Shown: in pieces, positions 5,040 to 55,622 of the stretch
Numbering within the stretch: position 1 is the first letter of the stretch
Layout: every line of letters begins with the position of its first letter
NCBI RefSeq assembly: GCF_988243305.1
Contig: NZ_OZ547138.1
From: a plasmid
DNA length: 64,000 nucleotides
Direction: 5' to 3' (one strand)
Notes under the pieces: model-generated
Databases searched by the model: none
The model's input: only the letters and a program-made list of their open reading frames with translations
What the model was told of the DNA's origin: nothing
Position numbers and translations under genes: made by a program

Positions 5040-5919
5040 TGGCAGCAGAGGGATTCACGATAAAACCAATGACGTAACCTGTTCCCGAGCAATAAAGGAC
5101 TGTTGCCGGGGATGTTTTTCGTGTATCCCATATCTTTGAATCTGTATCAGATGGCGTGTGTTCAATGACCGATAAACTGGCCGGAATGGTCGTGTTAAAA
5201 AAAATACTTAACGCGCCTGTAAATAAAGCAGCGGGAAGAGAAATGCTGGAATGATATATCCATGTGGAGAGTATCAGTGCCAGAATAGCATTTCCTGTAT
5301 TTATATAATAAAACCAGTCGTTATGGCGCAGATACCGGGTAACGGAGAGCCCCCTGGCGGACACGCCATCCGGGAAATGCAGCGCCAGAAGTAGGAGATA
5401 AATAACTGCTATTTCAGCCAGTGTAACAGGCAGCATAATGGAAAGACGTGACAGGAATGACATCAGCATGTCACTTATGACAGGATTAAGTCGTGTTGAA
5501 GATAATTCGTAAATGCCGGTTGTAAAACAGAACATATAACCCAGTCCGGCATAAGCAATAATGGAAACCGGCGTCAGTTTGTTTGATTTGTATGTTTTAT
5601 ACGTTCTCGTTGCTTCTTTAATGGTTAAAATTGTCAGCAGGGATGTGAGAATCATAACGGGTGGTATATATATGCAGATATATACCTGCAAAGGGTACTC
5701 AGTATCGTATACCCGGGTTGTTAATATAACGGACAGACTCAGTAAGGATATATTTCCGAAATGAAACCAGCGATACTGTTGAAGATACTGGAAAACAGTG
5801 ATGCCTGAAGAAAATGTCCATTTGCCGCGAGCATAAATAACAACCCAGAATAAAGAACTAATGATACATACCATCAGTATGCCGGGTAATATTGCAAAAA
5901 TAAATGATGATGTGCTCAT
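5032..5919 (-). CDS. Hypothetical polytopic membrane protein with two-fold internal repeat
   Basis: 295-aa ORF with about 8 hydrophobic segments. GITVFQYLQQYRWFHFGNISLLSLSVILTTRVY aligns with GLSVTRYLRHNDWFYYINTGNAILALILSTWIY. The DNA is AT-rich. Confidence 0.6.
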   Translation of the reverse strand: MSTSSFIFAILPGILMVCIISSLFWVVIYARGKWTFSSGITVFQYLQQYRWFHFGNISLLSLSVILTTRVYDTEYPLQVYICIYIPPVMILTSLLTILTIKEATRTYKTYKSNKLTPVSIIAYAGLGYMFCFTTGIYELSSTRLNPVISDMLMSFLSRLSIMLPVTLAEIAVIYLLLLALHFPDGVSARGLSVTRYLRHNDWFYYINTGNAILALILSTWIYHSSISLPAALFTGALSIFFNTTIPASLSVIEHTPSDTDSKIWDTRKTSPATVLYCSGTGYVIGFIVNPSAAIS

Positions 5920-6111
5920 TATTAAATCTCCATCAGCATGGTGATGCTTAAATTTTTACGGTTGTGAGGTGCGTAATAAATATCATGTGTAGTTGTGAAT
6001 AATAGCGTCAGCAACATATATAAAAATAATCTGCATTCCTGAAAAATATCGTGGTTGTGAAATATTTAATTTTTACCCCCTTTTATGGGGGATGAAAAGC
6101 AGGCTGTCAGG

Positions 6112-6354
6112 CTATAACTGAACGCGGTTTCTGGATTTTGGTGCTAATGTCACATCTTTCCATTCACAGCTGCTTCCGGGGATACGCTCTTTGCGTCGTA
6201 TTATACGGGAGTTCTGACACACAATAATTAAGCCATTGTCTGCCGTCTGAAATGGCATTATAGCGATGTTTATATCTTCTGTTGCAGGAATATAACTGAC
6301 TTTCTTTTCACATGTATTGGTGTATATGACAACTCTGAATTTTTCTGCGGACAT
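6112..6354 (-). CDS. Hypothetical 80-aa protein downstream of yqiK-like gene
   Basis: Internal ATG (MSAEKFRV) preceded by an AAGAGGA SD at 6-nt spacing. The track ORF extends to 6429, which I consider an over-extension. Confidence 0.45.
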   Translation of the reverse strand: MSAEKFRVVIYTNTCEKKVSYIPATEDINIAIMPFQTADNGLIIVCQNSRIIRRKERIPGSSCEWKDVTLAPKSRNRVQL

Positions 6355-6434
6355 TTTCAATCCTCTTTTAAACCAGAATATCCCGTGAGGGCATTCTTTG
6401 TGAAAAAGATGCCGGAAAAATTCCGGCACGGGGA

Positions 6435-8129
6435 TTAAACCTGTTGTGGTTCTGAGTTATCCGGAGCGGTTACCGGTTCGCTGACATCCGGAACCTTTTC
6501 CGGGGCAGGCATGACCAGTGGACGTGTCAGGGCTGTAAGTCCTTCACCGGATAAACCCACCTCTTTCAGCAGGGAGTCGATGAGCGGAGCCTGTGTACGG
6601 TAAGCCAGAGCGGCGGTTACTGCCTGTTCAGCGAGATTTCCGCCACTTATGTCGGTTGTTGCTGTTTTACCGCGGGTAACACCGCCATTCAGACCATCCA
6701 CCTGAATGATTTTAATACCGTCAATGGATTTCATTGGTTCTGTGGACTTCTCTATGACGGCAGGTAATGCATCCAGCAGGGCAAGACGGAAGCGGAGGCT
6801 GGTCTGCTCATCCGAAAGCACGTTAATGGCATCGTTCAGTGCGCGCTGTGCTTCTGCTTCTGCCAGACCTTTCTGACGGGTGGCCTCCGCCAGTTCAATA
6901 ATTGCTGCTGCCTGGAGTTCGGCTGCTTCTTTTTCAGCCTGTGCGCGAACCGTCAGTTCAACCGCTTTCGTTTCAGCTTCCTGAGCAGCAGCAATCAGGG
7001 CAACCTGTTTGGTACGGTCGGCCTCCGCAGTCTGGCGGGTGGTTTCCACATCCTGCTGGGCCTGTACGGCCTCAGCCAGTGCTTTACTTGCCCGGGCTTC
7101 TGCCTGTGACTGCTCTTCCGATTTTGCCGCCACGGCAATGGCTCTGGCCTGGCTGGCGATTTCGGTTGCCTGCTGTTGCTCAATTTCCCGTATGGCCACT
7201 TCCCGTTCGGCTTCGACCTGGCGGGTACGCACTATCTGCTGTCGTTCGATTTCGGCTTCCTCTATCTTACGTTCAGCCAGAATTCGCGCGGATTCTGCTT
7301 CACGACGTCGTTCAGCTTCAATAGCAGCAATACTGGCACTCTGCTCTGCCGTACGGGTTTTTACCCGTTGTTGTTGCTCCAGAGTCATGAAGGCTTCCTG
7401 CTGTTCAATCTCCAGACGTCGGGAGAGTGCATCCCGGTTTTTTTCCCTGATGGCCACTTCAACATCCTGCTCAACTTCGTTGCGTTCGCGGCGACGACGT
7501 TCTGTTTCCTGGGTCAGAAGGGTCAGGCCTTCAGCATCAAAGGCATTGTCAGGATTAAAATGTACCCGTGCAGTCTGGTTGAAACTTGTCAGCGACACAC
7601 TTTCAAGCTCCAGACCGTTTTTGGATAAGTCTTCCGCAACGGTGTTCTGCACACCCTGAACAAAGTTCTCGCGGGCATCCTGTAAATCCTGCATGCTCAT
7701 TCTGGCCGCCGTGGCCCGTAGGGCATCAACAAATTTATCCTCGACCAGACTACGCAGATCTTCAGGTGTGAGCGTGCGTTGTCCCAGCGTCTGGGCTGCA
7801 GTGGATATTCCTTCGGCTGATGGTTTTACCCGAAGAAAAAAGGCAACGGCAACATCAACACGCATACGGTCGCGGGTTATGAGACTTTCAGCCGCTGCAC
7901 GACTGACTTCCAGCTTCAGGGTGTTCATGTTGACGGGAATTGTTTCGTGAAAAATGGGCATAACAATTGCACCGCCACTCATTACCACTTTTTGGCCTCC
8001 CAGACCTGTGCGGACAAAGGCCTGCTCTGCCGATGCCCGGCGGTACAGGCGGGCAAATATCAGCCCGATAACGAACAGGGTGAGGACCAGCGCTATAACG
8101 GTAAACAACCATCCCGGAAGATTAAACAT
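6435..8129 (-). CDS. yqiK: SPFH/flotillin-family membrane protein (YqiK-like)
   Basis: 564-aa ORF with an N-terminal TM, an SPFH-like region, then a long Ala/Glu/Gln/Arg-rich coiled coil. Size and organisation match E. coli YqiK (about 553 aa), and it is paired with a YqiJ-like gene upstream. Confidence 0.85.
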   Translation of the reverse strand: MFNLPGWLFTVIALVLTLFVIGLIFARLYRRASAEQAFVRTGLGGQKVVMSGGAIVMPIFHETIPVNMNTLKLEVSRAAAESLITRDRMRVDVAVAFFLRVKPSAEGISTAAQTLGQRTLTPEDLRSLVEDKFVDALRATAARMSMQDLQDARENFVQGVQNTVAEDLSKNGLELESVSLTSFNQTARVHFNPDNAFDAEGLTLLTQETERRRRERNEVEQDVEVAIREKNRDALSRRLEIEQQEAFMTLEQQQRVKTRTAEQSASIAAIEAERRREAESARILAERKIEEAEIERQQIVRTRQVEAEREVAIREIEQQQATEIASQARAIAVAAKSEEQSQAEARASKALAEAVQAQQDVETTRQTAEADRTKQVALIAAAQEAETKAVELTVRAQAEKEAAELQAAAIIELAEATRQKGLAEAEAQRALNDAINVLSDEQTSLRFRLALLDALPAVIEKSTEPMKSIDGIKIIQVDGLNGGVTRGKTATTDISGGNLAEQAVTAALAYRTQAPLIDSLLKEVGLSGEGLTALTRPLVMPAPEKVPDVSEPVTAPDNSEPQQV

Positions 8130-8155
8130 AGTGAGAACCTCTGTATATGTCGGGA

Positions 8156-8776
8156 TTAAAGAACATCCGGCCAGGGATTCAGTTCGCCCAGCCAGCGGGA
8201 ACCGGAAAGACGGCAGACAATAATCACTTTGTCTCCTCGTCTGAATTCTTTCCCGGCCTCCGGCTCCAGCAACAGGTAATGAACCTGCCCGAAGCGGTCT
8301 GTGAAGCGACCTTCACAGGGGGAACCCGCCACTGCGTGATAACCAGTGATGGTGGCCATACAGCCGATGAATGCCTCCTCGGTGAGCGCCGTTGTTTCAT
8401 CACGGGGTAACCAGGGGGCAATCAGTCTGCCGGTGCGGTGTACGAGAGGACATGTCAGCAGCAGGCAAAGTGGTGCAAGGAGAATGTTCGGGGCAGGAGC
8501 CTGCAGCAGATGAATAATAAGACCCTGCAGGAGAATGCCGGATATACCAAAAAAACCTGCCAGCATACAGAGGACGATCAGCAGGGGGATCCGTCCGATG
8601 TTCAGCCAGTCCAACGCCTCTCCTGTCAGACCCTCCGGTAAATCAGGTGTATCCATAGCTGAAGAGAGGGAGTGTCCGCAGAGCAGGGCGATAAGTTCAG
8701 CGATACCAGTAAGCAGAACAAAAGTCAGGGCTGCCAGATAGGGTGCGTTATACGCGGTAAGTAACGTCAGTGTCAT
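8156..8776 (-). CDS. yqiJ: NfeD-like inner membrane protein (YqiJ-like)
   Basis: 206-aa ORF with 3-4 TM segments followed by a soluble C-terminal beta domain. It lies 27 nt upstream of the flotillin gene, the classic NfeD-SPFH operon arrangement. Confidence 0.75.
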   Translation of the reverse strand: MTLTLLTAYNAPYLAALTFVLLTGIAELIALLCGHSLSSAMDTPDLPEGLTGEALDWLNIGRIPLLIVLCMLAGFFGISGILLQGLIIHLLQAPAPNILLAPLCLLLTCPLVHRTGRLIAPWLPRDETTALTEEAFIGCMATITGYHAVAGSPCEGRFTDRFGQVHYLLLEPEAGKEFRRGDKVIIVCRLSGSRWLGELNPWPDVL

Positions 8777-50500: not shown

Positions 50501-53212
50501 ATGAATGCCATTATTCCGCACAAAAGACGTGACGGCAGGTCTTCCTTTGAAGACCTGATTGCGTACACGTCTGTGCGGGATGATGTGCAGGAAAATGAGC
50601 TCACAGAAGACAGCGAAATCAAGAGTGATGTCCCTCACCGCAACCGTTTCAGACGGCTTGTTGATTATGCAACACGCCTGCGTAACGAAAAATTTGTCTC
50701 CCTGATTGATGTGATGAAGGACGGCAGTCAGTGGGTAAATTTCTATGGCGTAACCTGTTTCCATAACTGCAATTCACTGGAAACAGCTGCTGAAGAGATG
50801 CAGTACAAGGCGGACAAAGCTGTTTTTTCCCGTAATGATACAGACCCCGTTTTCCACTACATTCTTTCCTGGCCTGCGCATGAAAGCCCGCGTCCTGAGC
50901 AGCTTTTTGACTGTGTGCGTCACACACTGAAATCTCTTGAACTCTCAAAACATCAGTACGTGGCTGCCGTTCATACGGACACGGATAATCTGCATGTGCA
51001 TGTTGCCGTGAATCGTGTACATCCTGAAACTGGTTATATTAACTGGCTTTCCTGGAGCCAGGAAAAACTCAGCCGTGCATGTCGTGAACTTGAACTTAAG
51101 CACGGATTCGCGCCTGATAATGGCTGCTTTGTGCATGCACCCGGCAACCGTATTGTGCGCAAAACAGCGCTGGTACGTGAGCGCCGTAATGCCTGGCGAC
51201 GCGGGAAAAAGCAGACGTTCAGGGAATATATTGCGCAGATGTCGATTGCCGGGCTGCGTGAAGAGCCCGCACAAGACTGGTTGTCTTTGCATAAACGGCT
51301 GGCCAGTGATGGTCTGTATATCACGATGCAGGAAGGGGAACTGGTGGTGAAGGATGGCTGGGACAGAGCGCGGGAAGGTGTTGCACTCAGTTCGTTCGGA
51401 CCGTCATGGACAGCTGAAAAACTGGGGCGGAAACTGGGGGAATATCAGCCTGTACCGACAGATATTTTCAGTCAGGTGGGGACACCCGGTCGTTATGATC
51501 CGGAAGCCATAAACGTTGATATCCGGCCGGAAAAAGTGGCAGAAACGGAGAGTCTGAAACAGTACGCCTGCCGTCATTTTGCCGAACGCTTACCGGAAAT
51601 GGCGAGAAATGGTGAGCTGGAAAGTTGCCTGGATGTGCACAGAACTCTGGCAAAGGCTGGATTATGGATGGGGATCCAGCACGGGCATCTGGTACTGCAT
51701 GATGGATTTGATAAACAACAGACACCAGTACGTGCAGACAGTGTGTGGCCGTTAATGACGCTGGATTATATGCAGGATCTGGATGGTGGATGGCAGCCTG
51801 TACCGAAGGATATTTTTACTCAGGTTATACCCGGAGAACGATTCCGGGGACGTAATCTTGGTACTCAGGCTGTCAGTGATTACGAATGGTATCGTATTCG
51901 GATGGGGACAGGTCCACAGGGAGCAATAAAGCGCGAACTGTTTTCCGATAAGGAAAGTCTGTGGGGGTACACGACTGTTCAGTGTGAGTCGTTGATTGAA
52001 GATATGATCGCGGGCGGGAATTTCAGCTGGCAGGCGTGCCATGAGATGTTTGCGCGTAAAGGGCTTATGTTGCAGAAACAGCATCATGGTCTTGTGATTG
52101 TGGATGCGTTTAATCATGAGCTCACACCAGTGAAGGCCAGCAGTATCCACCCGGATTTGACGTTATCCAGGGCTGAGCCGCAGGCAGGGCCATTTGAGAT
52201 TGCAGGTGCAGATATATTTGAACGGGTGAAGCCTGAATGTCGCTACAATCCGGAACTTGCTGCCAGCGATGAAGTGGAGCTCGGCTTCCGGCGCGATCCT
52301 GTACTGCGTCGTGAACGCCGTGAAGCCCGTGCAGCTGCGCGGGAAGATTTGCGCGCGCGTTATCTTGCATGGAAGGAGCACTGGCGTAAACCCGACTTAC
52401 GTTACGGAGAACGGTTACGGGAAATTCATGCTGCCTGCCGTCGGCGCAAGGCGTATATCCGTGTGCAGTTCCGGGATCCACAATTGCGTAAGCTGCATTA
52501 CCATATTGCAGAAGTGCAGCGTATGCAGGCGCTGATCAGGCTGAAGGAGAGTGTGAAGGAAGAGCGGTTGTCACTGATTGCGGAGGGTAAGTGGTATCCT
52601 TTGTCCTACCGGCAGTGGGTGGAGCAACAGGCGGTACAGGGAGACAGAGCTGCATTATCACAGTTACGTGGCTGGGATTATCGTGATCGTCGCAAAGACA
52701 AGCGACGAACAACGAATGCCGACCGCTGCGTGATTCTCTGTGAACCGGGAGGAACTCCACTTTATGAAGACACTGGCGTTCTCGAAGCCCGTCTGCAGAA
52801 AGATGGCAGTGTGCGTTTTCGTGATCGGAGGAATGGCGAGTTAGTCTGTGTGGATTATGGGGACCGTGTGGTGTTCTACCATCATCAGGACAGAAATGAA
52901 CTGGTGGATAAGCTGAATCTGATTGCTCCTGTATTGTTTGATCGTGAGCCAAGAATGGGTTTTGAACCGGAAGGCTCATATCAACAGTTTAATGATGTAT
53001 TTGCGGAAATGGTGGCCTGGCATAATGCAGCTGGAATAACCGGAAGTGGACACTTTGTAATCAGCCGCCCGGATGTGGATTTACATCGTCAGCGTAGTGA
53101 ACAGTACTACCACGAATATATCAGGCAACAGAAAAGCATATCCGGGGGGCATGGCGCATCTTATGCTCCAGTTCAGGATAATGAGTGGACGCCACCATCA
53201 CCTGGAATGTAG
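50501..53212 (+). CDS. nikB: Relaxase NikB (MOBP family)
   Basis: 903 aa. The N-terminal relaxase domain has the HTDTDNLHVHVAVNRV histidine motif. Its size is close to R64 NikB. Confidence 0.9.
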   Translation: MNAIIPHKRRDGRSSFEDLIAYTSVRDDVQENELTEDSEIKSDVPHRNRFRRLVDYATRLRNEKFVSLIDVMKDGSQWVNFYGVTCFHNCNSLETAAEEMQYKADKAVFSRNDTDPVFHYILSWPAHESPRPEQLFDCVRHTLKSLELSKHQYVAAVHTDTDNLHVHVAVNRVHPETGYINWLSWSQEKLSRACRELELKHGFAPDNGCFVHAPGNRIVRKTALVRERRNAWRRGKKQTFREYIAQMSIAGLREEPAQDWLSLHKRLASDGLYITMQEGELVVKDGWDRAREGVALSSFGPSWTAEKLGRKLGEYQPVPTDIFSQVGTPGRYDPEAINVDIRPEKVAETESLKQYACRHFAERLPEMARNGELESCLDVHRTLAKAGLWMGIQHGHLVLHDGFDKQQTPVRADSVWPLMTLDYMQDLDGGWQPVPKDIFTQVIPGERFRGRNLGTQAVSDYEWYRIRMGTGPQGAIKRELFSDKESLWGYTTVQCESLIEDMIAGGNFSWQACHEMFARKGLMLQKQHHGLVIVDAFNHELTPVKASSIHPDLTLSRAEPQAGPFEIAGADIFERVKPECRYNPELAASDEVELGFRRDPVLRRERREARAAAREDLRARYLAWKEHWRKPDLRYGERLREIHAACRRRKAYIRVQFRDPQLRKLHYHIAEVQRMQALIRLKESVKEERLSLIAEGKWYPLSYRQWVEQQAVQGDRAALSQLRGWDYRDRRKDKRRTTNADRCVILCEPGGTPLYEDTGVLEARLQKDGSVRFRDRRNGELVCVDYGDRVVFYHHQDRNELVDKLNLIAPVLFDREPRMGFEPEGSYQQFNDVFAEMVAWHNAAGITGSGHFVISRPDVDLHRQRSEQYYHEYIRQQKSISGGHGASYAPVQDNEWTPPSPGM

Positions 53213-53315
53213 GGATGAGGAGTGGATATTAAAAATCTTAACTTGTATTAGTTAAGATTTTCTTTGCTCTGACAGAGCTATGGTACTGAGATCTATATGG
53301 ATTGAGGAGCAATAT

Positions 53316-53711
53316 ATGGGGGTAAAGAAAATCGTTATGCTGGCTATTTTAGTCAGCTTTGTGGCGGGATGTGCGCCATTACATCCTTCAAATTGCCATA
53401 AAACTACAGCCCTGGGTAGTTGCAGTTCAGGACGTTGGGATGATCAGGATGAATGGGGGGAGCAAGCACGGGGAATCAGGGATGCAATTAATGCTAAACT
53501 TGATGATCCGCAAAAATGGAAAAGGAAAAAATGCAGGTTGCATATGGAATTCTCCCGGGATGGCACGGCGTTAAAAATATCAACCAGTAATGGCGATAAA
53601 GCCTATTGCGAAGCGATAAAGTCAGCAGCCCATAAAGCTAAATTCCCGGCCTTCAACAATCCGGAAGTTTATAGAGATTTTCAAAAATCCGGCTTTGACA
53701 TGCGCGGTTAG
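53316..53711 (+). CDS. Lipoprotein with TolA C-terminal (domain III)-like domain
   Basis: 131 aa from the ATG after a GAGGAG SD. Lipobox VAGC. IRDAINAKLDDPQKWKRKKCRLHMEFSRDGTALKISTSNGDKAYCEAIKSAAHKAKFPAF aligns with E. coli TolA IKSAIESKFYDASSYAGKTCTLRIKLAPDGMLLDIKPEGGDPALCQAALAAAKLAKIPKP. Confidence 0.7.
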   Translation: MGVKKIVMLAILVSFVAGCAPLHPSNCHKTTALGSCSSGRWDDQDEWGEQARGIRDAINAKLDDPQKWKRKKCRLHMEFSRDGTALKISTSNGDKAYCEAIKSAAHKAKFPAFNNPEVYRDFQKSGFDMRG

Positions 53712-53996
53712 CTCCACGACATATCTGTAGGGCTAACAGAAGACTGTCAGGTTGGCTGATTACTACACTGGAACCTGAGGTACTTTGCCTCAGGTTATGT
53801 TGACATACTCAAAAATAGATTCTTACATTATCCCGGTAACGGCGTCCTTCATCGGCCTGCCAGTTACCATCAATGGTATTGGTACCCTCGTTCTTTCTGT
53901 CTGTGATGTTAATAAGGGCAAAATTAATCAGCATGTCTGGCAGGAATGATTCCGCGTCTGGCACAGCCAGGCACCTGATGGCATGAAATGCCGCTA

Positions 53997-54023
53997 AGCC
54001 CGCGTAATTGCGGGCTTTTTTTT
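53997..54023 (+). terminator. Rho-independent terminator
   Basis: agcccgc-gtaatt-gcgggct followed by a T8 run. Confidence 0.65.
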
Positions 54024-54253
54024 GTTTGTGTTTGGCACGATCTGGCAACGGGAGGAAGCGCCAAGCACCGTTTGAGCATGGCATTAAAGCTGGTATTATG
54101 GTTTGGCGATGCCATGATTGATGCCGATACCATGCTGCGTTCTTTTGTGTGTTCATGGTATTAATATTCTATAAGTTACTGTTTCGTAAGAAAAAATACG
54201 ATAAATTCGAGATTTTTTCAGCATGGTATCGGAGACGAAGAAGGACAAGGTAC

Positions 54254-54802
54254 ATGCTGACCGATACCAAGCTGCGCAATCTCAAGCCCAGGGACAAACT
54301 CTACAAAGTGAATGACCGGGAAGGTCTCTATGTGGCAGTGACTCCAGCCGGCTCCATCTCGTTCCGTTACAACTACTCAATCAACGGTCGGCAGGAGACC
54401 ATCACCTTTGGGCGTTATGGTGTCGGTGGCATCACCCTGGCCGAAGCCCGCGAGCTGTTGGGTGACGCCAAGAAGATGGTTGCGGCGGGCAAGTCGCCGG
54501 CCAAGGAGAAAGCCCGAGACAAGGCGCGGGTGAAAGATGCAGAGACGTTCGGTGCCTGGGCGGAGAAGTGGCTGCGTGGCTACCAGATGGCCGACTCCAC
54601 CCGCGATATGCGCCGCTCGGTTTATGAGCGTGAGCTGAAGCCGAAATTCAGCAATCAGAAGCTGGTGGAGATCACCCACGAAGACTTGCGGGCGCTGGCT
54701 GATGCCATTGTTGAGCGAGGCGCACCGGCCACCGCCGTTCATGTGCGTGAAATCGTGTTGCAGGTATTTCGCTGGGCCATCGAGCGTGGGCAGAAGGTCG
54801 AA
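54254..54802 (+). pseudogene. N-terminal 183 codons of a P4-type tyrosine integrase, cut by IS26
   Basis: MLTDTKLRNLKPRDKLYKVNDREGLYVAVTPAGSISFRYNY is the typical arm-binding N-terminus. The frame runs straight into the IS26 IR at 54803, and the catalytic domain is absent. Confidence 0.85.
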
Positions 54803-55622
54803 GGCACTGTTGCAAATAGTCGGTGGTGATAAACTTATCATCCCCTTTTGCTGATGGAGCTGCACATGAACCCATTCAAAGGCCGGCATTTTCAGCGTGA
54901 CATCATTCTGTGGGCCGTACGCTGGTACTGCAAATACGGCATCAGTTACCGTGAGCTGCAGGAGATGCTGGCTGAACGCGGAGTGAATGTCGATCACTCC
55001 ACGATTTACCGCTGGGTTCAGCGTTATGCGCCTGAAATGGAAAAACGGCTGCGCTGGTACTGGCGTAACCCTTCCGATCTTTGCCCGTGGCACATGGATG
55101 AAACCTACGTGAAGGTCAATGGCCGCTGGGCGTATCTGTACCGGGCCGTCGACAGCCGGGGCCGCACTGTCGATTTTTATCTCTCCTCCCGTCGTAACAG
55201 CAAAGCTGCATACCGGTTTCTGGGTAAAATCCTCAACAACGTGAAGAAGTGGCAGATCCCGCGATTCATCAACACGGATAAAGCGCCCGCCTATGGTCGC
55301 GCGCTTGCTCTGCTCAAACGCGAAGGCCGGTGCCCGTCTGACGTTGAACACCGACAGATTAAGTACCGGAACAACGTGATTGAATGCGATCATGGCAAAC
55401 TGAAACGGATAATCGGCGCCACGCTGGGATTTAAATCCATGAAGACGGCTTACGCCACCATCAAAGGTATTGAGGTGATGCGTGCACTACGCAAAGGCCA
55501 GGCCTCAGCATTTTATTATGGTGATCCCCTGGGCGAAATGCGCCTGGTAAGCAGAGTTTTTGAAATGTAAGGCCTTTGAATAAGACAAAAGGCTGCCTCA
55601 TCGCTAACTTTGCAACAGTGCC
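54803..55622 (+). mobile_element. IS26 (copy 2, 820 bp, inverted relative to copy 1)
   Basis: IRs at 54803-54816 and 55609-55622. Flanking 8-mers (aggtcgaa / ggattgaa) differ, so there is no TSD. Confidence 0.97.
54866..55570 (+). CDS. tnp26: IS26 transposase Tnp26 (Gly at residue 184)
   Basis: 234 aa, identical to copy 1 except KRIIGATLGF. Confidence 0.97.
   Translation: MNPFKGRHFQRDIILWAVRWYCKYGISYRELQEMLAERGVNVDHSTIYRWVQRYAPEMEKRLRWYWRNPSDLCPWHMDETYVKVNGRWAYLYRAVDSRGRTVDFYLSSRRNSKAAYRFLGKILNNVKKWQIPRFINTDKAPAYGRALALLKREGRCPSDVEHRQIKYRNNVIECDHGKLKRIIGATLGFKSMKTAYATIKGIEVMRALRKGQASAFYYGDPLGEMRLVSRVFEM

Follow-up and report, generated by a model that had tools for sequence, protein, structure and literature searches.

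A predicted lipoprotein with a free-standing TolA domain III on enterobacterial plasmids, prophages and chromosomes: a possible decoy for TolA-dependent phages and colicins

Introduction

Here we report that a small gene directly downstream of the relaxase gene nikB on a plasmid encodes a predicted lipoprotein whose mature part is a free-standing copy of domain III of TolA (TolAIII), joined to its signal peptide by a short, strongly conserved cysteine-containing tether. This tolA-like gene is a single-gene accessory unit, or “moron”, whose copies have reached conjugative plasmids as well as lambdoid prophages and the chromosomes of enterobacteria, and it is under purifying selection. From the computed fold, lipobox, distribution and selection, we tentatively propose, at somewhat less than an even chance, that the protein may act as an outer-membrane-tethered TolAIII decoy for phages and colicins that depend on TolA.

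TolA domain III is the periplasmic hub that group A colicins and filamentous phages hijack, and it is needed for the integrity of the outer membrane. Over-production of soluble TolAIII or of periplasmic g3p-N1 reportedly renders cells tolerant to colicins and filamentous phages, as is said to have been found by Levengood-Freyermuth in 1993 and Boeke in 1982. The concept is the same as the one considered here, namely a free TolAIII, uncoupled from TolQR, that competes for TolA ligands. Those proteins are, however, laboratory constructs that also make cells leaky, whereas the plasmid protein is natural, lipid-anchored by prediction, of low abundance and diverged, and has an added conserved tether.

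The domain as such, a generic PGAP annotation and a PHROGs grouping under ‘unknown function’ were already known. The architecture of the protein, its distribution on mobile elements and the conserved tether appear to be undescribed: a search of the full-text literature returned no functional study of the tolA-like protein or of any natural TolAIII-only lipoprotein, and only the proteome detection of L7092, the orthologue on plasmid pO157 (UniProt O82913).

Results

Gene organisation and flanking signals

The stretch of DNA analysed here (the window) comprises 64,000 nucleotides of plasmid contig NZ_OZ547138.1 (RefSeq assembly GCF_988243305.1) and matches, at 100% identity, the E. coli plasmid p1-S1-KEN-03-A (NZ_CP145695.1), typed by MOB-suite as IncI-gamma/K1, MPF_I and MOBP. 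The local order runs from the leading region through nikA (annotated mobA), nikB and the tolA-like gene to a truncated integrase and IS26, beyond which lie mph(A)-mrx-mphR and then a class 1 integron region. The features discussed below are as follows.

50501..53212, plus strand: nikB relaxase, 903 aa, the upstream neighbour, given for context only
53232..53261, plus strand: perfect 12-bp hairpin followed by UUUUCUUUG in the gap between nikB and the gene (-11.4 kcal/mol, z = -5.4)
53304..53309, plus strand: Shine-Dalgarno sequence GAGGAG, 6 nt ahead of ATG 53316, kept in the prophage copy
53316..53711, plus strand: coding sequence of the 131-aa TolAIII lipoprotein (131 codons plus stop)
53316..53372, plus strand: signal peptide and VAGC lipobox, residues 1-19, with Cys19 predicted to be lipidated (read from the sequence)
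53373..53450, plus strand: cysteine-loop tether, residues 20-45, APLHPSNCHKTTALGSCSSGRWDDQD (from family conservation and AF2)
53451..53708, plus strand: predicted TolA domain III fold, residues 46-131 (Pfam, phmmer, AF2 and Foldseek)
53772..53796, plus strand: hairpin just past the stop codon of the gene (-16.6 kcal/mol, z = -4.4)
53946..54802, plus strand: left end of GIsul2, with the 5' part of int from 54254, outside the tolA-like unit

The coding sequence bears the PGAP name ‘cell envelope integrity TolA C-terminal domain-containing protein’ and is called there as a 143-aa protein, WP_001335086, starting at ATG 53280. The ATG at 53316, giving the 131 aa of the initial annotation, is the better start, because the prophage orthologue has a GTG start at the position of the plasmid ATG behind the same Shine-Dalgarno sequence, and because homology across replicons reaches no more than ~30 nt upstream of it. 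A gap of 103 nt separates the nikB stop codon, at 53212, from the start of the gene. The tract that follows the hairpin in this gap is U-rich, and the two together are likely to form a weak terminator of nikAB, while the hairpin at 53772-53796 looks terminator-like and may close the tolA-like gene unit. A scan for sigma-70 consensus promoters between nikB and the tolA-like gene found none.

The mature protein has the fold of TolA domain III

[quoted passage not shown] Pfam TolA_C (PF06519) matches residues 44-125 over profile positions 10-92 of 96 (E = 4.2e-14) at 53 bits, above its gathering threshold of 25 bits. A phmmer search of the PDB aligned residues 50-129 with E. coli TolA 340-419 without a gap (E = 3e-8, ~32% identity); C73 and C98 fall on the TolA pair C363-C388, and the alignment contains both the conserved cysteines and the DG, I, GD, C.A, AA and AK.P pattern that had been remarked upon. 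Two AF2 models reach pLDDT 82-97 over residues ~41-130, with a predicted helix at 46-61 and strands at 72-79, 85-91 and 124-130. The comparison with known structures that had been suggested as a check was run with Foldseek, and the AF2 model matched the TolAIII crystal structures 3qdp, 2x9a and 1tol at target-normalised TM scores of 0.85-0.91 (rmsd 1.1-1.2 Å, probability 1.00), the best match being 3qdp (TM 0.91, rmsd 1.2 Å).

The likeness to TolA domain III (E. coli TolA ~333-421; 1tol, 1s62, 3qdp and 2x9a) thus covers the fold, the disulfide pair and an ungapped length, and it extends to the exposed C-terminal β3 edge strand, whose Asp is retained. At ~32% identity the protein differs from TolA in having neither the N-terminal transmembrane anchor (domain I) nor the long helical domain II, in being encoded outside the tol-pal operon, with nikB and GIsul2 or trbC as neighbours, in being lipid-anchored, by prediction, from the opposite membrane, and in the replacement of the lysines that contact colicin A. 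A true TolA orthologue was rejected on this architecture and on the NCBIfam cut-offs: the TolA equivalogs TIGR02794 and PRK09510 scored 53.8 bits against 213 and 45.2 against 59.45, respectively, with only the C-terminal ~80-110 profile positions aligned.

A lipoprotein signal and a conserved tether

The N-terminus, MGVKKIVMLAILVSFVAGC followed by APL, is built like a standard lipoprotein signal peptide, its basic n-region and hydrophobic core leading to a VAGC lipobox and an Ala at +2, in agreement with the classic lipobox that the initial annotation had described. VAGC falls within the SPase II pattern [LVI][ASTVI][GAS]C, and in the family G18 is nearly invariant and C19 invariant. For L7092, a LipoP SpII site is given as VAGC31A (PMC3210124). 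From the Ala at +2, Lol would probably sort the lipoprotein to the outer membrane.

Between lipobox and domain lies the slowest-evolving and most conserved part of the protein. In this tether C27 is nearly invariant and C36 invariant, and the motif CxPLxPxxCxKxxAxxxC..G..DxD is invariant or nearly so across the family; among the most distant members its dN is 0.16-0.18 against 0.41-0.53 for the TolAIII domain, that is, two to three times slower. In the AF2 models the tether has a pLDDT of ~40-53, and a rerun with a more diverse alignment of 56 sequences, in which docking of the tether on the domain was sought, still left it at ~50. Because it is so conserved though AF2 leaves it at such values, we take the tether to be a functional element in which, we infer, C27 and C36 probably form a disulfide loop.

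Ligand-binding surfaces compared with TolA

Colicin A binds strand 375-380 of TolA and makes cation-pi contacts with K368, K379 and K396 (PMC3365938). These three lysines correspond to E78, S89 and H106 in the plasmid protein, whose equivalent strand reads ALKIST rather than LLDIKP. Because the contact lysines are replaced, the colicin A site is judged not to be conserved, and capture of colicin A is doubtful.

The β3 site compares differently. g3p-N1, colicin N and the TolB N-terminus all use the C-terminal β3 strand of TolA, to which they bind mainly by backbone hydrogen bonds at D418 and K420, and proline substitutions abolish the binding (PMC4339652). TolA 414-421 (NAPLDFKP) aligns with KSGFDMRG, so that D418 is D128, and the plasmid β3 contains no prolines; its segment SGFDMR is a strand predicted with high confidence and is invariant among close orthologues. 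The helix that contacts g3p presents a solvent face unlike that of TolA. In the models, the promiscuous β-augmentation site therefore looks structurally retained, with a specificity that is unreadable from sequence. A further segment, SSGRWDDQDEWG, loosely resembles what we take to be the colicin TolB-box motif DGSGW...W; the resemblance carries little information and is not claimed as a match.

Distribution on plasmids, prophages and chromosomes

PLSDB holds 614 plasmids with DNA of the gene, 601 of which encode a protein at least 95% identical. Their hosts are almost all E. coli and Shigella, the latter mostly S. sonnei among the matches listed, and pO157 (locus L7092) is one of the carriers. 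Among complete E. coli genomes the gene occurs in 1274 of 5426 (about a quarter), on a plasmid or in a prophage: there are 548 plasmid copies, with a best match of at least 99% nucleotide identity in 521 records, and 824 chromosomal copies at ~88% nucleotide identity. The two chromosomal copies examined belong to Rac-like lambdoid prophages, where they are flanked by the Q-like antiterminator region and the holin gene essD, and phage mEp460_ev081 has an 88%-identical copy in the same Q-to-holin slot. At least 120 IMG/VR contigs carry the gene, and PHROG phrog_5772 (‘unknown function’) is a full-length match (E = 1.8e-60, residues 4-131 on profile positions 1-128 of 128). Between replicons, homology is confined to the open reading frame and ~30 nt.

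Stand-alone orthologues, 53-88% identical and in variable chromosomal contexts, are found in Enterobacter, Citrobacter, Klebsiella, Raoultella, Lelliottia, Leclercia, Kluyvera, Pantoea and Rouxiella; a synteny comparison across 33 species revealed no conserved neighbourhood. There is a sister subfamily in Enterobacter, Pantoea and Serratia, and a 50%-identical member on K. pneumoniae IncFII plasmids stands beside a gene for a periplasmic Thioredoxin_2 protein. A search of viral folds in BFVD found no TolAIII-like viral structure.

Within the I-complex, the survey of occurrence that had been proposed gave a lineage-specific answer, with ~600 PLSDB plasmids in all carrying the gene and the one plasmid examined with an IncI1-type NikB lacking it between nikB and trbC. 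In typical relatives of the window plasmid, nikB and the tolA-like gene are followed after ~800 bp by trbC-trbB-trbA on the opposite strand. In the IncI1-type plasmid, as in the IncK2/Z plasmid pCERC10 (NikB C-terminus 82% identical), nikB is followed directly by trbC, and the 1385-bp segment that bears the gene is specific to the lineage in which the NikB C-terminus is at least 95% identical (IncB/O/K/Z-type). A conserved backbone gene of IncI1 (R64-type) plasmids is rejected on this ground. The earlier placing of the gene at the trbA site of R64-type plasmids was imprecise in the same respect, as nikB of IncI1 is abutted by a convergent trbC and not by trbA.

The gene is not part of the neighbouring island

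The gene does lie immediately after nikB and beside an integrase fragment, as had been noted, and from this it had been suggested that it could be the cargo of a degraded integrative element. Mapping of the boundary contradicts that suggestion. In plasmid pHUSEC41-1-like the integrase heads a 15.46 kb block, int-alpA-repA-repC-trbJKL-ars-resolvase-ISVsa3 (CR2 element)-sul2, a gene set that we take to be GIsul2. Judged against island-free relatives, the insertion point is at window position ~53943-53946, ~235 bp downstream of the tolA-like gene, and the 15.46 kb insertion of pHUSEC41-1-like is exactly there. The occupied site reads GGCAGGA followed by ATGATTCC, and the empty site GGCAGGA followed by TCTGGGAATTC, with a relaxed TGGG core. 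IS26 cuts the island, whose biology is covered elsewhere (PMC9376610), at 54802/54803.

Cargo of an integrase element is therefore rejected, as the tolA-like gene ends at 53711, outside the mapped boundary of GIsul2. The junction between gene and island is present in only 6 of the 2617 plasmids that match the stretch, hundreds of plasmids have nikB, the tolA-like gene and trbC with the island absent, and pO157, which has no integrase here, retains the 3' two-thirds of nikB, the tolA-like gene and the next 155 bp. ARAGORN, run on the whole window, found no tRNA that would mark an attachment site of an island.

Other TolAIII-only lipoproteins

The tolA-like gene is one of several of its kind. 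In the prophages, a second TolAIII lipoprotein is encoded directly upstream (paralogue A; 142 aa, IIGC lipobox, ending in VLDFKP), which is 60% identical to E. coli TolA 340-419 and only 29% to the plasmid protein. Klebsiella plasmids carry a different TolAIII lipoprotein of 144 aa with a LITAC lipobox (~250 PLSDB plasmid records of this type), which adjoins a thioredoxin gene orthologous to the IncFII one (81% identical); together with the IncFII member it makes two further lineages of TolAIII lipoproteins on Klebsiella plasmids. Paralogue A and the 144-aa protein have the architecture of the plasmid protein, with a linker between the signal peptide and lipobox and the TolAIII domain, and they too are carried on mobile elements, but they are 29-33% identical to it and are without the cysteine-loop tether. 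A library of representatives at 50% identity contains many more lipobox-TolAIII proteins of 120-150 aa, and many of the other short TolAIII lipoproteins keep a TolA-like DDL(F/L)G motif before the domain.

Selection and expression

Purifying selection acts on the tolA-like gene, with pairwise dN/dS values of 0.06-0.21 against more than 30 orthologues. In pO157 the open reading frame is intact though the surrounding IncI transfer genes are gone. Its product there, L7092, was detected by shotgun proteomics in STEC 86-24 (O157:H7) (PMC3210124 Table 1, Table S6), only in the high-Mr SEC fraction, in which lipoproteins are enriched, and its listing there is ‘L (IM or OM)’; its APEXi was ~321, where Pal reached ~22,600 and LolB ~1,200 in that table. 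On the strength of this detection, the protein is produced, in modest amounts, even in a setting in which the transfer genes around it have decayed.

Discussion

A candidate decoy for TolA ligands

The decoy reading, which is tentative, runs as follows. Following the +2 rule, the lipoprotein would reach the outer membrane and sit on its inner face, where a tether of ~26 residues, probably disulfide-bonded, would hold a free-standing TolAIII in the periplasm close to that membrane. There the domain would act by molecular mimicry, offering the exposed β3 edge strand that TolA uses for β-strand augmentation, and ligands that have to seize TolAIII for their entry would be caught instead by a decoy uncoupled from the TolQR motor. 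Candidates would be filamentous phages specific for pili, through g3p-N1, and certain group A colicins, through the segments that bind TolA. For plasmids of the I-complex the obvious target would be an IF1-type filamentous phage: IF1, whose site for binding TolA is permanently exposed, uses IncI type IV thin pili together with TolA-C (PMC7911016). The window plasmid encodes such a pilus.

An accessory function of the conflict or defence type, based on mimicry of the TolA hub, is suggested by the combination of a single-gene unit, the repeated capture of at least three lineages by plasmids and prophages, the moron slot, purifying selection and retention in decayed contexts, and the decoy idea gains indirectly from the recurrence of the same family on plasmids and as a moron of prophages. 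Against it stand the lack of conservation of the lysines that contact colicin A and the modest abundance in O157; simple titration would be weak, since an APEXi of ~321 is low for a lipoprotein next to ~22,600 for Pal. Sensitivity to several group A colicins has been reported for O157:H7 strains, which also counts against a decoy.

Some further observations sit uneasily with a decoy. Identity to E. coli TolAIII is 32%, and the solvent face of the g3p-contacting helix differs. The defence-protein models of PADLOC-DB v2 gave no family match at E <= 1. In other genera the chromosomal copies have contexts of ordinary appearance. The strongest conservation lies in the tether, which the decoy model leaves unexplained.

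Outer-membrane lipoproteins of prophages and plasmids that keep competitors out offer parallels: Cor (phi80/N15) and Llp (T5), which act on FhuA, TraT, TrbK and the Bor/Iss morons are likewise small lipoproteins from single-gene morons or exclusion genes of mobile elements; Bor, like the prophage tolA-like copies, belongs to the moron area in the lysis region of lambdoid prophages. These proteins inhibit a receptor or act otherwise, and none of them copies a receptor or hub domain of the host.

Other readings

A different view, unlikely on balance but with several observations on its side, is that the protein serves in the envelope as a lipoprotein in which the TolA/TonB C-terminal fold has been put to use for another partner, unrelated to Tol ligands, for example a peptidoglycan-associated factor or an outer-membrane protein. 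The tether may then be the key binding element, and mobile elements would have picked up a general envelope-fitness function. That the tether motif is the most conserved part of the family fits this view, as do the loss of the colicin A contacts, the altered g3p contacts on the solvent face of the helix and the pairing of the Klebsiella plasmid relatives with a periplasmic thioredoxin-fold protein. Chromosomal copies occur in many Enterobacterales in contexts that do not look mobile, and a housekeeping role in the envelope is allowed for because the stand-alone copies of Enterobacter, Citrobacter and Pantoea have ordinary-looking neighbourhoods. However, three lineages of TolAIII lipoproteins have been captured independently by plasmids and prophages, which is more typical of conflict than of housekeeping genes; one captured lineage is 60% identical to the host TolAIII, and the E. 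coli copies have no conserved partner gene.

The protein might instead antagonise or modulate the Tol-Pal system, which we consider a slightly poorer prospect. An outer-membrane-tethered TolAIII would bind the TolB N-terminus (or Pal) and locally uncouple TolB-Pal from TolQRA; a looser outer membrane would ease lysis for the prophage, and the plasmid would gain vesiculation or easier assembly of the mating pore. Free periplasmic TolAIII, as Levengood-Freyermuth et al. reportedly found in 1993, produces a tol phenotype, which counts in favour of such a role. The prophage copies, lying between Q and the lysis cassette, would be in the late transcript, and the plasmid copy has the relaxase operon on one side and the trbCBA transfer genes on the other. 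TolB uses the very β3 strand of TolAIII that is retained here (PMC4339652). Yet the gene is kept and expressed in the non-conjugative pO157, where mating does not apply, is kept in defective Rac-like prophages, where lysis does not apply, and also exists on chromosomes as a solitary gene with no lysis genes nearby. A factor that constitutively weakened the outer membrane should be costly, whereas the gene is under purifying selection. By our estimate, ~300 copies could not titrate the far more abundant TolB.

A functionless passenger, that is, a decaying tolA fragment hitch-hiking beside nikB, is scarcely credible and was rejected as a pseudogene on dN/dS (0.06-0.21) and proteomics: the literature search gave no functional study and the promoter scan no obvious sigma-70 promoter upstream, but the open reading frame is intact in ~600 plasmids and at over 800 sites on chromosomes. 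It has also gained a signal peptide with a lipobox and a tether specific to the family, and its product is seen by mass spectrometry.

Implications

Returning to the decoy, a broader and more speculative possibility, rather unlikely as a whole, is that such proteins form an unrecognised class of defence or competition factors, in which outer-membrane-tethered copies of the host TolA hub would intercept invaders before they reach the energised TolQRA. Plasmids would thereby shield their host from IF1-type phages that exploit the plasmid's own pilus, the tandem decoys of prophages would cover different colicins or phages, and the cysteine-loop tether would position the decoy at the portal of entry.

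Among the carriers of the gene are pO157 and, in E. coli and Shigella sonnei, IncB/O/K/Z plasmids with multidrug resistance. If the protein acts as a decoy, it would represent a new kind of receptor-mimic defence, would contribute unnoticed to the fitness of important resistance and virulence plasmids, and would matter for interventions based on colicins or filamentous phages; if it is a Tol-Pal modulator, it would offer a new natural tool for probing Tol-Pal.

Start codon and flank of the tolA-like gene

PGAP/RefSeq annotates the tolA-like gene as 143 aa from the ATG at 53280 (WP_001335086; L7092 in pO157), and this longer call is present in the PLSDB/RefSeq records examined. We prefer the 131-aa start at 53316, as proposed in the initial annotation, because it is supported by the position of the Shine-Dalgarno sequence, the GTG start in prophages and the reach of homology. 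The "integrase fragment" previously noticed beside the gene we take to be the left end of GIsul2, cut by IS26.

Features around the gene (window coordinates)
53280-53315: extra N-terminal stretch of the PGAP call
53809-54156, - strand: PGAP 115-aa "hypothetical protein" WP_157700089.1, spanning the GIsul2 junction
53946-54802: GIsul2 left end, int' from 54254
54803-55622: IS26, cutting the GIsul2 left end

The empty site of this insertion (...GGCAGGA/TCTGGGAATTC) contains the relaxed TGGG core, and the island is here in a secondary site, its usual location being the 3' end of guaA. The junction found in the window is rare in PLSDB, where just 6 of the 2617 plasmids that match have it. WP_157700089.1 is doubtful as a gene, since its ORF changes length (231 nt) in island-free plasmids, and is probably not real.

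The plasmid's own colicin

Window positions 1-49000, equivalent to NZ_CP145695.1 115030-126176 plus 1-37800, hold the following features.

Features within 1-49000
part of the pil thin-pilus operon
repA and yacAB
gene for a colicin of the Ia/Ib type, accompanied by a colicin Ib immunity gene
qnrS1 and blaCTX-M-15, IS26-flanked
impCAB/umuDC-like operon
ssb-psiB-ardA leading region

Colicins of the Ia/Ib type belong to group B and are TonB-dependent; the colicin encoded by this plasmid does not depend on Tol, and self-protection against it therefore needs no tolA-like gene.

Relatives in other replicons

Locations of relatives
L002 (NZ_CP017441.1) 5876-8546: I-complex plasmid relic in pO157, just upstream of toxB
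CAAFVW010000016.1 (L099): MAG "Lachnospiraceae bacterium"
CAVCKO010000060.1 (L100): MAG "Treponemataceae bacterium"
L014 5422-5850 and 6001-6396: two TolAIII lipoproteins, phage mEp460_ev081
L015/L016 6589-7395: two TolAIII lipoproteins, E. coli chromosomes
L013 4217-5246; L136 2083-3297: TolAIII lipoprotein and Thioredoxin_2, Klebsiella plasmids

The non-mobilisable IncF plasmid pO157 has kept a 2.7 kb remnant of an I-complex plasmid, comprising the 3' two-thirds of nikB and an intact, expressed tolA-like gene, L7092. Two MAGs, species representatives from unrelated phyla, carry ~8 kb contigs encoding a tolA-like protein 100% identical to the window's and a NikB 98-99% identical; E. coli plasmid DNA assigned to the wrong bin is almost certainly what these contigs represent.

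Lambdoid and Rac-like prophages encode two differing TolAIII lipoproteins in tandem in the Q-to-holin interval, the upstream one, with 60% identity to host TolA domain III and the C-terminus VLDFKP, being frequently annotated as a tolA pseudogene. Klebsiella plasmids carry two unrelated TolAIII-lipoprotein lineages, each adjoining a periplasmic Thioredoxin_2 protein whose gene lies upstream in one lineage and downstream in the other. The two Thioredoxin_2 proteins are orthologous (81% identical, CVYC motif), and Thioredoxin_2 and the TolAIII lipoprotein may form a functional pair tied to disulfide formation.
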